24,202 nucleotides of DNA from the IMG/VR virus record IMGVR_UViG_3300030102_001057, positions 1-24,202 of that record. One strand, written 5' to 3'. The translations under genes were made by a program, and so were the position numbers. Source of the DNA: a virus. Its lineage: Duplodnaviria; Caudoviricetes. Positions 3,204 to 22,866 of the stretch are shown here, in pieces; position 1 is the stretch's first letter, and every line of letters begins with the position of its first letter. The notes below the pieces were generated by a model that did no database searches, was not told the origin of the DNA, and worked only from the letters and a program-made list of their open reading frames with translations.

Positions 3204-7345
<4,142 letters not shown>

Positions 7346-18574: not shown

Positions 18575-18814
18575 CTACTCCTCCTTTCTGGGTCTTAACT
18601 TCGGTTTAATTAACTTCGATACGGTGTTTGATTTGTGACACATCATCATGATGTCATTGCCATAGAGGTCGTACAGATGGTTGTAGATCCCATCCGCACT
18701 TCCACTATTCATGGCTGACTCACAATGCTTCTCACTCTGAAACCATACAGCCATATCAATCTCACGATCTTGAACGCTGTATGAAATAACTAATGCCGTG
18801 AAGTATTCAATCAT
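18575..18814 (-). CDS. Hypothetical protein (79 aa)
   Basis: ATGA coupling to the upstream gene; GAGGA RBS. Confidence 0.7.
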   Translation of the reverse strand: MIEYFTALVISYSVQDREIDMAVWFQSEKHCESAMNSGSADGIYNHLYDLYGNDIMMMCHKSNTVSKLIKPKLRPRKEE

Positions 18815-19308
18815 GCTACATCCTCTTCGACACCGCGTAGAGTTTGCGCCACATTTTCAAATACACTGAGATCAATGCCAATGTTTTCTGCACACCCTCG
18901 GTATCTTGACAACCAAGATGCCAGAGCAGTCGCCGCTTGTCTACGAAGTTCTCGCTGCGAATCTTCATCATCAGGATCAAACCGCTCGTAGCCTCCGCCC
19001 TTCCCTCGTAAACTCACAGGACTTATAAACGTAGGATATTCCCTCACGGTTATGTTGACCACCTGATCGTTGGGAGACGAATCTTGAACCACGATCCTCA
19101 GTCCACTCGCCATCTGACGAGCCAACTGAATGCGATGCTGTTGTGCAGCTTCCGCATCGTCCATACCATAGAACCAGTCGTATGCTTCATGGTCAGGATA
19201 GTCTCTCAACCAATCCACAAACTCCCTTGGTACAAACATGTTGCGGCCTGACGCCGCTAAGTATTCGTCAATAATTCTTTGACGTTCTTTCTTTGGAAAT
19301 CCAGCCAT
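18811..19308 (-). CDS. Hypothetical protein directly downstream of the pentamer array (candidate accessory protein)
   Basis: AGGAGG RBS; 165 aa; F...DDAEAA..HR...AR-type motif; starts 30 nt after the array. Confidence 0.75.
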   Translation of the reverse strand: MAGFPKKERQRIIDEYLAASGRNMFVPREFVDWLRDYPDHEAYDWFYGMDDAEAAQQHRIQLARQMASGLRIVVQDSSPNDQVVNITVREYPTFISPVSLRGKGGGYERFDPDDEDSQRELRRQAATALASWLSRYRGCAENIGIDLSVFENVAQTLRGVEEDVA

Positions 19309-19338: not shown

Positions 19339-19966
19339 GACCGCCAAACCGGAACAGTCCTGAACAAACCCTACCCAGCCGGAACGGGACCGACAAACCG
19401 CGCCCAAACTTACCGGATCAAACCTAGCCACATCCCGACCGCCCTACCTGGCTTGGACCCACCTCATCACAACACACACTACCATGACCGACTTACCGAA
19501 AAACACCAAGACTTACCGGATCGAACCGGAACATAACCGACTCACCGTGTACCGACATAACTTATCCCGACGGACCAGGCCCCGACCGACCCAACTTGGC
19601 TCAACATAACTGATCCTGACATGACCGACTTACCTAACCCTACCGCGCCCCGACTTAACGCACCCGGACTTACCCAGACGTACCCGACCCAAACGGGCCG
19701 CGCCTGACCCCGACTTGACCGACATACCATAACCGACCCCGCCCCGACATAACTCGACCGCCTAGCCCTAACTGACCCCGACATAACGTACCCGAACTTA
19801 CCGCAACGTACCGAAACACACCGCACCATGACCGACTAACCGTGACCAAATGAGATGGGCGATTTAGCCGAGTCGCCCATCCCTTCTTTTTAAGGAGATT
19901 AAAATGTCTTTATAAAGGTCTCTCGACCGCCGTACCTTGACCAAATGAAAGGGGCATTGCTGCCCC
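19339..19966 (-). ncRNA. Putative guide-RNA array: nine units of (NN-GNY)n pentamers separated by GGTC, preceded by two hairpin-leader modules (VIPR-like)
   Basis: Plus-strand delimiter GACCG(A/C)C at 19339, 19388, 19437, 19486, 19535 (AACC variant), 19584, 19623, 19717, 19756 and 19830. Spacings are 49,49,49,49,49,39,94,39,74, all 4+5n. 86 of 91 pentamers begin R-N-C on the plus strand. Co-oriented with and directly downstream of a Cas7/RAMP-like gene. Confidence 0.8.
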
Positions 19967-19971
19967 GATCT

Positions 19972-20757
19972 TTATGCTGCTTCAACGAGAGATATGTCTC
20001 TTCGTGCTCGTTCCTGTTGAATGAACTCCATCAGTTCAGCCGTCTGTTCATCGGCATACACTGGATTGTCCAAGGCTTCTTTCTGTGCCTCGCGACCTTC
20101 AAGCATCAGTTCATCCCAAAGTTCTTGGTATCCGCCCATGCTGTCCTCAGTCACCACATCAAAGCAACCGAACGAACCTTTACCTTTTTCCTGACGGAAG
20201 TCTCCGATACCAACAATCGATCCTGCGTTTGTCAACAAAGACACAATCGAATACGCACTGAGCGTCGGTTGAACGTAGGTTATATCAACCTCCGCACACC
20301 AACGTGGCATATATGCCCTCGTCCGCATGTCTGGTGTCTTGTTCATGTCCGCTGATCGAACCACATCAATCTTCAGTTGAGGCTTACCCCAAATCTGGAT
20401 GTGTGTTTCTGGTAAAAAGATCAGGCGTTGCACACTAGACTTTGTAATGCCGTCTGTTTCCAGAGCTGCTGTCGCCATGGCTTGTTTAACTCCAGGTGCA
20501 GGGAAACATAACAATGTATCGTCTTTAGGTTTTCTATAGACGCTGTCACGAAACTCCTCCTCTGGATTGTGCTTGATCTCTTTCTTCTGTGCGGCTGTCT
20601 TCTTGCCGCCTCCTATAAGTAAATCACGCATGGCTTTTGAACTCATGCTGTTGAAATACATCGGGGTCGTACCTATCATGCGTAGTGTAACTTTACCCGT
20701 TTTAAGTGGTTGAATCTCCAAAGATGTTGATTCTATTTTTTTAGTACTTTTTGCCAT
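19972..20757 (-). CDS. Cas7/RAMP-like RNA-binding protein (Vipr-like), putative effector of the adjacent array
   Basis: RAMP-like layout: VTLRMIGTTPMYF strand, FPAPGVKQAMATAA helix, RTRAYMPRWCAEVDITY, and a C-terminal Gly-rich loop AGSIVGIGDFRQEKGKGSFGCFDV. AGGAAGG RBS. Confidence 0.72.
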   Translation of the reverse strand: MAKSTKKIESTSLEIQPLKTGKVTLRMIGTTPMYFNSMSSKAMRDLLIGGGKKTAAQKKEIKHNPEEEFRDSVYRKPKDDTLLCFPAPGVKQAMATAALETDGITKSSVQRLIFLPETHIQIWGKPQLKIDVVRSADMNKTPDMRTRAYMPRWCAEVDITYVQPTLSAYSIVSLLTNAGSIVGIGDFRQEKGKGSFGCFDVVTEDSMGGYQELWDELMLEGREAQKEALDNPVYADEQTAELMEFIQQERARRDISLVEAA

Positions 20758-21699: not shown

Positions 21700-21767
21700 T
21701 ACCAATCCTCCTTGAATACTTTGCGGAATATCTCATCCAACATGTCTTCCATCTCACGGTCTGTCAT
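21699..21767 (-). CDS. 22-aa micro-protein MTDREMEDMLDEIFRKVFKEDW
   Basis: GGAGGT RBS; TAATG coupling to the next gene; amphipathic helix pattern. Confidence 0.5.
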   Translation of the reverse strand: MTDREMEDMLDEIFRKVFKEDW

Positions 21768-22866
21768 CTCTCACCTCCATGTAACTTTCGATTAATCCTT
21801 GCGCGACTTGCGCTGTGATGGCGTTGCCGTAGGCGCGGAGTCGTCCCACTCTGGCGGTAGCCCCATCAACCAACGGGAATGACTGGGGTCTAACTGGCCT
21901 CCACTTTCCATCTCGGCAGAGGAGCCAGTCAGCATCTGACCAGAAACCGTTAGTCTCATAGGCTCTGGCTTGGGCATCATTTCCCCCTTCGCCTCCATTA
22001 CAGCTTCGATCATCTCGGGTGATACTTGCTCCCTCAGATTGCACGGAAACGATCTGTTCTTTCGCGTCGTCTGATGCATCCTGATCATTGCCTCTCGGCT
22101 CCGTAACGGTAGACTGTCCATCGTGTTGGGCGTTGCCCACCCTGCCATCTTCGACAACTGGGTCAGACTGCTCCCCGACATTCCGTCCGTGATCCCCGAT
22201 CCCCCTCGCGTTCCGTCCGTCGCCGATGGTGTCGTCCACCCTGTCAGTTGCGCTGTCACATCCAACGTGTCTGTGCTGATCTTGCCGTTCCGTATCCGAC
22301 CGCCTTGATATCCACCCTTGCCGTCGCGTGTCGTCGGTGTCGGCCACGAACCAAAGTCTTTGCCTGATGTGCGGCGCACCGAAGCCCGCAGAGCAGAGAT
22401 CAAAAGCCCCGATGGCGTAGTCCGCTCCTTCCATGTCAGCTTGTACAAGGTCGATCCAACCGAGTCCGTCTTTCGACGCAACCTGTTCGCCAAAGACCGT
22501 TGAAGGTCGGCACTGTTCGATGAGGTGGAACCAGTGAGGCCAGAGGTGCCGCTTGTCAGCCATCCCCTTTCTGTTACCTGCGCCGCTGAAAGGTTGGCAC
22601 GGACATGATCCTGTCCAGACTGGTCGGTCGTCCTCCCACCCTGCGGCTCGGAGTGCGTAACTCCAGACGCCGATCCCTGCGAAGAAGTGACATTGAGTAA
22701 ATTCTTGAAGTTCATCTGGTCGGACATCTGATATGCTCCTTTCGTCCACTATCCCATCTGCAATATGCCCAGACCGAATTAACGATCTGAGCCACTCTGC
22801 GGCGTATGGGTCTATCTCATTATAGTAAGCCCACTTCTGTCCGCCTATAGATTTGTGCGTCACCAT
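21754..22866 (-). CDS. C5-cytosine DNA methyltransferase, large (alpha-type) chain
   Basis: Motif I FFAGIG, IV GSCPCQPFS, VI EQV, VIII GAPHIRQRLWFVA and X RLRAYGNAI. Motif IX is absent from this frame. Confidence 0.88.
   Translation of the reverse strand: MVTHKSIGGQKWAYYNEIDPYAAEWLRSLIRSGHIADGIVDERSISDVRPDELQEFTQCHFFAGIGVWSYALRAAGWEDDRPVWTGSCPCQPFSGAGNRKGMADKRHLWPHWFHLIEQCRPSTVFGEQVASKDGLGWIDLVQADMEGADYAIGAFDLCSAGFGAPHIRQRLWFVADTDDTRRQGWISRRSDTERQDQHRHVGCDSATDRVDDTIGDGRNARGIGDHGRNVGEQSDPVVEDGRVGNAQHDGQSTVTEPRGNDQDASDDAKEQIVSVQSEGASITRDDRSCNGGEGGNDAQARAYETNGFWSDADWLLCRDGKWRPVRPQSFPLVDGATARVGRLRAYGNAITAQVAQGLIESYMEVRDDRP
21792..22727 (-). CDS. Nested alternate-frame MTase chain (beta-type) with WxTP repeats and motif IX
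   Basis: Own RBS AGGAG 8 nt before ATG 22727; three W(P/T/A)TP...D repeats; GQLDPSHSRWLMGLPPEWD is motif IX-like. Confidence 0.78.
   Translation of the reverse strand: MSDQMNFKNLLNVTSSQGSASGVTHSEPQGGRTTDQSGQDHVRANLSAAQVTERGWLTSGTSGLTGSTSSNSADLQRSLANRLRRKTDSVGSTLYKLTWKERTTPSGLLISALRASVRRTSGKDFGSWPTPTTRDGKGGYQGGRIRNGKISTDTLDVTAQLTGWTTPSATDGTRGGSGITDGMSGSSLTQLSKMAGWATPNTMDSLPLRSREAMIRMHQTTRKNRSFPCNLREQVSPEMIEAVMEAKGEMMPKPEPMRLTVSGQMLTGSSAEMESGGQLDPSHSRWLMGLPPEWDDSAPTATPSQRKSRKD

Follow-up and report, generated by a model that had tools for sequence, protein, structure and literature searches.

The window, i.e., the whole 24,202-nt stretch of DNA that was analyzed, carries on its minus strand a vipr gene (19972..20757), downstream of it a staggered vrRNA array (19339..19846), and, directly past the array, a putative accessory (vap) gene (18811..19308). 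The 261 amino acid product of vipr has no Pfam match; a profile of 46 homologs gave SUSP1 Vipr (36pp_D) as the top PDB sequence match at E=0.0024, and the structural model (pLDDT 79.5) has a RAMP (Cas7-like) fold with a glycine-rich loop, resembling Csm3/Cas7/Cmr RAMPs (best Z 9.2, rmsd 3.8, 157 aligned). The G179-G197 glycines are invariant. The putative vap product (165 amino acids) has no Pfam, NCBIfam, or PADLOC match, and its single-sequence model was uninformative (pLDDT 44); nevertheless, all 61 related loci with room for one have a homolog of it ≤400 nt past the array. Between vipr and the array are two hairpins on the minus strand (19951-19966 and 19854-19881, within 19854..19966), each followed by CATTTGGTC and a pentamer piece of two dinucleotides (NN). 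The two copies are ~92 nt apart (window 19845-19970) and are apparently a duplicated array leader, of which the related locus L001 has the first copy only; the RNA-structure z-score of the region 19845-19975 is -2.55. The plus strand of the leader insert has a ribosome-binding-like site, an ATG, and a stop two codons later. A staggered pentamer array, a RAMP-fold Vipr, and a conserved downstream gene together make up the anatomy of a staggered-array VIPR, and the locus is thus a VIPR system, in which the RAMP-fold gene and the conserved, putatively accessory gene flank the array.

The window, a virus record of 24 kb, is a genome fragment with a GC content of ~46%, and also carries PolA, primase, UvrD, and SNF2 genes. 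Its PolA is 49-54% identical to the DNA polymerase A of 023Pt_psg01, HTVC023P, DSL-LC04, and HTVC027P, and by sequence the window phage is a marine HTVC023P-like phage; the public runs that contain the locus are marine, seawater, or estuary wherever a label exists. The cultured HTVC023P-type phages share PolA at this level but have no match to the window Vipr. When cultured phages were searched with Vipr, 30 records were found, all of them Mycobacterium or Gordonia phages at ~30% identity, and these Vipr-like genes (H26-H55) are annotated as hypothetical. CRP-901-type Roseobacter phages have unrelated replication genes, according to the accessible part of PMC10149686, and the window phage therefore probably lies outside that genus. 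Two further observations on the window can be recorded here. A C5 DNA methylase ORF (21754-22866) is overlapped in a different frame by a second long ORF (21792-22727), both on the minus strand, and the latter contains repeated W[PA]TP motifs. A 16-codon repeat (EFDPTKPFTIV-like) is found on the plus strand at 3209-3304 and 7133-7180, and a 1381 amino acid protein has this repeat twice at its start and once near its end.

The array consists of a leader piece of two NN and nine units, which in array order are 14, 7, 18, 7, 9, 9, 9, 9, and 9 NN long. All 10 junctions in the window read G[GT]C-G-GTY, i.e., a pentamer that is one base short; the units abut through the single G, with no tail sequence in between. 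The third unit, U3 (19627..19716, minus strand), is the subject of this analysis. Its reverse complement is 18 NN+G[GT]Y pentamers with zero gaps, having 11 GGY and seven GTY scaffolds, and on both sides it is flanked by the junction GTC-G-GTC, with one-base phase slips at 19720 and 19626. The gap-free parse of the minus strand yields precisely the 18 dinucleotides of the original prediction (aa gg ca gc cc tg cg ac tg aa cg gc aa gg gc ag ta aa). Contigs of runs X2 and X5, from two studies, cross U3 with no indel or joint within it, and U3 is thus not an assembly artefact. One 343-nt metatranscriptome contig covers 19411-19689, although contigs give neither RNA ends nor strand. No RNA structure was detected in U3 (z -0.56), and the window contains no CRISPR-like repeat family.

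An array of this architecture is present in 78 of 80 related viral loci (the best 80 of 199), these 78 being the loci with DNA downstream of the Vipr homolog. Across the clade arrays, 1683 of 2878 scaffolds are GGY and 757 are GTY. In the arrays of these loci (L001-L080) and the window, a purine follows 709 of 831 C-ending scaffolds and 797 of 1609 T-ending ones; NN=GG is also far commoner after GGC or GTC (143/831) than after GGT or GTT (43/1609). This context rule may reflect a structural constraint or the route by which guides are built. That the scaffold encodes the skipped base was also considered, but the association was weak (chi-square p=0.03, 24 non-independent guides) and was not accepted. 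Among 321 distinct regular units from the window and related phages (75 of 396 units, which have irregular slips, were left out), the commonest length is 10 NN (82 units), followed by 9 (66), and the range is 6-15; the outliers of 18, 19, and 23 NN occur once each. The length of U3 had been described as exactly twice a common unit of nine, and nine is indeed the commonest length in the window (five of nine units), but with a mode of 10 in the clade the doubling looks coincidental. Natural vrRNAs reach 30 repeats in the accessible text of 10.64898/2026.04.26.720927. Other long units, of 23 NN (L024, L025, L029, L032, L033), 19 NN (L036), and 20 NN (L068), have no target that we found.

The original prediction held that U3 decodes to the C-terminal motif of an HNH endonuclease. 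The collection scans return exact matches only, and seeds were therefore made from subsets of the 18 NN. The whole 36-base pattern was absent from the window with three mismatches allowed; a nine-NN seed that included CC at position 5 had no match in viral contigs, and an eight-NN core seed was set aside because its 15 matches were at chance level (best 23/36). A GTDB scan gave seven matches, five of them HNH-like (best 27/36) and none from the close HNH family described below. The loose-seed viral scan gave 28/36 as the best among the 120 matches listed of ~220, and a stricter viral scan, which was complete, did not exceed 28/36, a value reached by an unrelated HNH in the viral contig L111. 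Seeds based on the motif residues retrieved a family of proteins ending in NGQAxCxxCNxxKG, in which an SF2 helicase is often fused to the HNH or follows directly after it. In metagenomes, a seed of 11 of the 18 NN had 12 matches; 12 of 12 lie in HNH-motif ORFs, and nine belong to one family of an HNH gene with a split SF2 helicase. This is above background, but the result is partly circular because the seed itself is the HNH motif.

The best target, L226:371-424, reads NGQATCRPCNRAKGARNA and matches U3 at 30 of 36 bases with a 1-nt skip (29/32 over the first 16 NN), which exceeds the 80% NN cut-off given in the accessible part of the discovery paper (bioRxiv 10.64898/2026.04.26.720920). Outside the seed the match is 8/14 bases, which for the best of 12 matches is modest evidence alone. 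A match within one or two mismatches, as had been expected, is absent; the best has six in 36, or three in 32 over the first 16 NN. Those 16 NN fit the HNH motif NGQA[T]CR[PT]CNRAKG[AG]R, and the decoding to the C-terminus of real HNH genes of the form NGQAxCxxCNxxKG thus stands. Residue 5 is an exception: it had been read as P, which never occurs in the targets, where 12 of the 13 motif variants have T and the remaining one has V, so that CC in U3 mismatches all 13. Relatives have the motifs NGQATCRTCNRAKGGR (P0335-type) and NGQATCRPCNRAKGAR, each identical to the U3-decoded peptide at 14 of 16 residues, and the former predicts a U3 match of ~30/32, an estimate made from protein. As to the HNH assignment, the L224 and L230 proteins score 43.5 and 44 bits against PF01844 (curated cut-off 21.4), and the L226 protein shares 90% identity with the representative of the L230 cluster. 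The L226 site takes in the last 18 HNH codons along with the start of the helicase, an ATG at L226:420. We also considered the HNH protein as the Vap of another VIPR type, and rejected the idea: there are no pentamer arrays near these matches, and one Vipr-like ORF was found in 142 loci (L109, a non-HNH match).

Further evidence comes from other guides of the clade. Nine loci (64 kb, both strands), which had been retrieved with the U3 seed only, were compared with 373 distinct clade guides. Nine guides matched at E<1e-4 with a skip of one, whereas no shuffled guide did, and skips of 0, 2, or 3 gave none. U3 and its L018 homolog account for two of the nine; the remaining seven match upstream in the HNH gene (GGLTDVTNGQ at 20/20 and 19/20, and WEPDHIVPF at 20/22 and 23/28) or in the helicase (16/16, 17/18, and 19/20). 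Weaker matches in these loci fall in a gene with an HGGxSTG domain. That guides of other phages match loci retrieved with U3, and do so under a skip of one only, is non-circular support. In control sets at E<1e-3, random-match loci were matched by 0 of 293 guides, and non-family HNH loci (1.02 Mb) by three of 293, with a skip of one only. Units 2 and 3 of L007, which are consecutive, both fit the same HNH gene (WEPDHIVPF, then NGQA...), keeping the gene order.

A second target set comprised 838 kb around HGGxSTG genes, from genomes of the family reached through DUF6478, which we take to be a Rhodobacteraceae marker. Here, 24 of 338 guides matched at E<1e-3, against none shuffled and none with skips of 0, 2, or 3. 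Pooling both sets (~0.9 Mb) and dropping the last NN of each guide gave 32 of 338 guides at E<1e-3 and again no shuffled one: 17 match HGGxSTG genes, six HNH, four PolA, two the helicase, two a primase-helicase, and one another gene. The skipped base is codon position 3 in all 32 (28 sense and four antisense), the gene frame having been taken from the protein motif or the longest open frame. At least one pooled match was found for 43 of 79 arrays. The E-values assume uniform base composition, for which shuffled guides served as the control; because clade guides are related by descent, the 32 matches correspond to about 13-14 distinct sites. Among the loci retrieved, HGGxSTG genes are matched by clade guides more often than any other gene, but these matches were favored because the loci had been retrieved with an HGGxSTG query; the PolA and primase matches were not so favored. 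Two clade guides also match the antisense strand of the integrase-like ORF of G828:C3 (19/22 and 18/20).

Of the other window units, U9 (19343..19387, minus strand) fits the antisense strand of the HGGxSTG-domain gene, whose sense strand reads NGRCKLHGG. It matches the L224 gene at 15/18 and that of L309 at 15/16 without its last NN (E ~1e-2), and homologous guides in L035 and L043 go down to E 7e-4. Seven of the nine window units have no significant target. No target was found for U1 (14 NN; 19760..19829, minus strand) in five genomes, and its two seed matches, at 19/28 and 20/28, are at chance level. U2 and U4-U8 have no significant target in the U3-seed loci or the HGGxSTG-island set; U2 (19721-19755) has a 12/12 match in L306 at E 0.05, which is not significant. 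Decoded by eye, U2, U4 (19588-19622), and U7 (19441-19485) give protein-like motifs, namely EIGGRI, the HTH-like ISQIENG, and the ParB/DUF262-like IRVVDGHQ; none of these is significant. No unit had a self-target above shuffles in the window, which is a genome fragment, or in the 80 related loci (1.66 Mb), and U3 had none in five related phage records.

The genes that these guides match lie in small, mobile-looking islands, in keeping with the expectation that the HNH genes would be those of mobile elements or defense islands. In L224 the gene order is tRNA-Lys, Sir2, a replication-initiator HTH gene, HNH, two helicase halves, a GIY-YIG-like/MORN gene, and HGGxSTG, the last of these having a weak match to a small terminase subunit (phrog_9231, E 5e-5). 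Sir2 also neighbors the cassette in L231, and in both loci the replication-initiator HTH gene precedes the HNH-helicase cassette. The HGGxSTG loci (L305, L309, L315, L318, and L321-L324) come from G621, G658, G810, and G724; L305 combines an integrase and PolA with HGGxSTG, L318 an integrase and AlpA with HGGxSTG, and L322 has an AAA_25 primase-helicase. Their HGGxSTG genes reach up to 4-6 copies per genome and occur in small islands or alone. An integrase-like ORF is also present in L329. A more distant HNH-helicase in G828:C3 lies between integrase-like and primase-like ORFs (both named by eye), and ~21 kb separates the integrase from tRNA-Ser. No integrase was found on the nine contigs with the best-matching HNH family, which are fragments of 1.2-11.7 kb, one of them covered in part; the HNH protein P0337 is encoded on a 1.44-Mb contig. 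No capsid or tail genes were seen among the island ORFs scanned. A search of IMG/VR viral contigs for the helicase and for HGGxSTG genes found neither, leaving packaging in particles unsupported, and HGGxSTG was absent from five related phage records. The HGGxSTG domain is not named in the literature searched.

One member of the HNH cluster and one of the HGGxSTG cluster carry a Paracoccaceae label. We infer, the link being indirect, that the host would be a marine member of the Rhodobacteraceae, and also that the targeted islands would be helper-dependent satellites. The close HNH-helicase family was found in none of 25 genomes, nor in 401 sampled genomes of the family, which yielded one distant fragment; in four genus searches, distant members were present in 1/7 and 1/23 genomes and absent from six and two. 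The U3 pattern was absent from 23 genomes, and a DUF6477 marker search returned nothing in 81 genomes.

U3 has relatives in other phages. L018 and L007 carry homologs on the same scaffolds, with alignment scores of 117 and 108 against a median of 47; these 15- and 13-NN versions cross the midpoint of U3. They differ from U3 at NN 5, 8, and 12, and NN 11 changes from CG to AG (both Arg), the latter being a reading by eye that spans a one-base deletion in L007. In runs X5 and X9, NN 12 of U3 is TC or AC, and NN 16 is AA in X9. The most variable residues of the target are 8, 12, 15, and 16; position 5 is an exception, varying among guides while nearly fixed in the sampled targets. Because the homologs share their scaffolds and the changes fall at variable target residues, U3 appears, from these sequence comparisons, to be an inherited guide retuned at variable codons. 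Its 3' end is different. In a held-out test of guides located by their cores (24/284), the first NN matched in 96%, the second-last in 58-62%, and the last in 50%; the closing TA and AA of U3 are thus probably filler, and the earlier reading of TA at position 17 as Tyr or stop is not supported. Of 396 units, 110 have AA as their last NN and 376 have GGC as their last scaffold, which together with the weak 3' match suggests that the 3' unit end may be a processing handle rather than guide. U1 and U2 (19717-19846) are replaced or rearranged in X2, X5, and X9, whereas U3 and the units 3' to it are largely kept; this hints at polarized turnover beside the leader.

Earlier publications already describe VIPR as such, along with staggered arrays, long guides, wobble alignment, and satellite targeting. 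Arrays whose units each begin where the previous one ends, shifted in phase by 1 nt, are described in the Fig. S18 legend of bioRxiv 10.64898/2026.04.26.720920, and the window junctions agree with that legend. The features shared with that staggered VIPR, in the accessible part of the preprint, are a RAMP-fold Vipr with one accessory gene, GGY/NN pentamers, one-base slips, the 1-nt skip, wobble alignment, targets on both strands, and no self-targets found. The window scaffolds differ in being G[GT]Y, and arrays with variant scaffolds have been published (10.64898/2026.10.21.760802, accessible in part). Like the window clade, the type II VIPR of SUSP1 has guides that converge on small integrative elements, the F5 satellites, and reads invariant codon positions of a catalytic motif (10.64898/2026.10.15.759431, in its accessible part). 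SUSP1 Vipr is also the best PDB sequence match of the window Vipr (PDB 36pp; 10.64898/2026.04.26.720927). The two systems differ in several respects according to the portions of these papers available: SUSP1 vrRNAs end in a pseudoknot tail, whereas the window units have none and so lack the 3' tail that marks type II; the window has nine units in one array and a Vipr of 261 amino acids, against 202 in SUSP1; the window clade targets HNH, SF2 helicase, HGGxSTG, PolA, and primase genes, and SUSP1 the excision recombinase alone; and here the host is marine and no structural genes were seen in the targeted islands. The terms HNH, marine, staggered, and helicase do not occur in the SUSP1 satellite paper (10.64898/2026.10.15.759431). 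By description, the targeted islands resemble in gene content the VEIMEs (PMC9618062, accessible in part), alphaproteobacterial modules with an integrase, AlpA, primase/helicase, DNA polymerase, HNH, and small terminase. The accessible VIPR literature searched does not describe targets of staggered arrays, and a marine target set, HNH-helicase or HGGxSTG targets, and lineages of guides that follow the variation of their targets were likewise not found in it; among the papers listed in a search of the Rhodobacteraceae, Roseobacter, pelagiphage, and HNH literature, vrRNA occurs in the discovery preprint only.

We judge that U3 is a VIPR guide against an island HNH gene, by which Vipr would silence the HNH-helicase operon of a probable satellite (probability about 0.68). 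On the model of SUSP1 VIPR, the array would be transcribed, cleavage at the phase slips would release single vrRNAs, and one Vipr protomer would coat each pentamer. Pairing of the dinucleotides to the HNH template strand would then leave out the wobble bases and give a gapped R-loop, and the bound Vipr filament would block transcription of the HNH-helicase operon, silencing it without cleavage. Because the U3 site overlaps the helicase start, a roadblock there would also reduce helicase expression; and as U3 passes over the third base of each codon and lies on the zinc-binding Cys/Asn/Lys codons, synonymous changes would offer the target no escape. The phage likely silences the HNH gene because the islands would parasitize or resist it.

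The main rival reading is counter-defense. If the HNH-SF2 helicase cassette were an island-borne anti-phage defense, U3 would be RNA-guided counter-defense and not an anti-parasite guide. An HNH joined to a ResIII/DEAD helicase, with weak PADLOC matches to PbeA, DpdE, and type II restriction endonuclease models, would fit such a role, as would the adjoining Sir2 in L224 and L231, the wide occurrence of the same HNH-helicase fusion in prophage-like contigs, and the lack of capsid or tail genes in the islands scanned and of the cassette in viral contigs. The PADLOC matches, however, are to partial helicase or HNH domains, a replication-initiator gene precedes the cassette in both of those loci, and HNH genes are reported in marine satellites (PMC9618062, in its accessible part); moreover, the same arrays match PolA, primase, integrase-like, and HGGxSTG genes, i.e., core functions of islands, which fits anti-element warfare. 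We regard counter-defense as rather unlikely, but the two readings may overlap and are not exclusive. Taking both together, it is highly probable that U3 acts as a VIPR guide and that its target lies in this HNH family.

It is improbable, in our judgment, that the true target is some other unsampled element, such as the HNH of a competing phage, with the island match due to motif conservation. Six mismatches are left in the best match, the unrelated L111 HNH comes within two bases of it, and the loosest viral seed listed 120 of ~220 matches; yet the stricter scan, which was complete, went no higher than L111, independent guides fit stretches specific to the family (GGLTDVTNGQ and WEPDHIVPF) and the adjacent helicase, and the non-family HNH loci attracted so few guides. 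Still less probable is that U3 arose when two unrelated 9-mer guides fused, or that it is a tandem repeat that has degenerated, its HNH reading being due to chance. It is true that 18 is 2 x 9 in a window where 9-mers predominate, and the motif was picked after the sequence had been seen. The halves, however, fit one site in register (16/18 and 14/18), the midpoint falls within CxxC-N, the homologous guides in L018 and L007 are long and cross that midpoint, and shuffled guides and other skips give no matches; that U3 reads as one continuous target, as proposed at the outset, is thus upheld.

A wider proposal can be made tentatively, at odds that we would place well short of even: the clade, a widespread marine one, may keep an inherited, retunable library of guides against HGGxSTG-marked Rhodobacteraceae satellites, with U3 serving as counter-defense against a new HNH-SF2 helicase anti-phage module, and with guides evolving by point changes at codons that vary in the target. 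Were this so, decoding arrays would reveal satellite and defense genes, and phage hosts, directly from sequence. With the system already published, the element of surprise is limited. The analysis nevertheless adds a marine phage clade to the enteric and Pseudomonas phages of VIPR target biology, and natural targets are now given for a staggered array. By what they match, the guides mark the HNH-helicase module, and likewise HGGxSTG, an unstudied gene, as important in small islands. The versions of U3 across phages and samples make the manufacture and updating of vrRNAs testable; here, updating would consist of point changes in an inherited guide, with 5' units being replaced more often. For an uncultured phage, the guides are a readable record of what it fights, and point to the family of its host.
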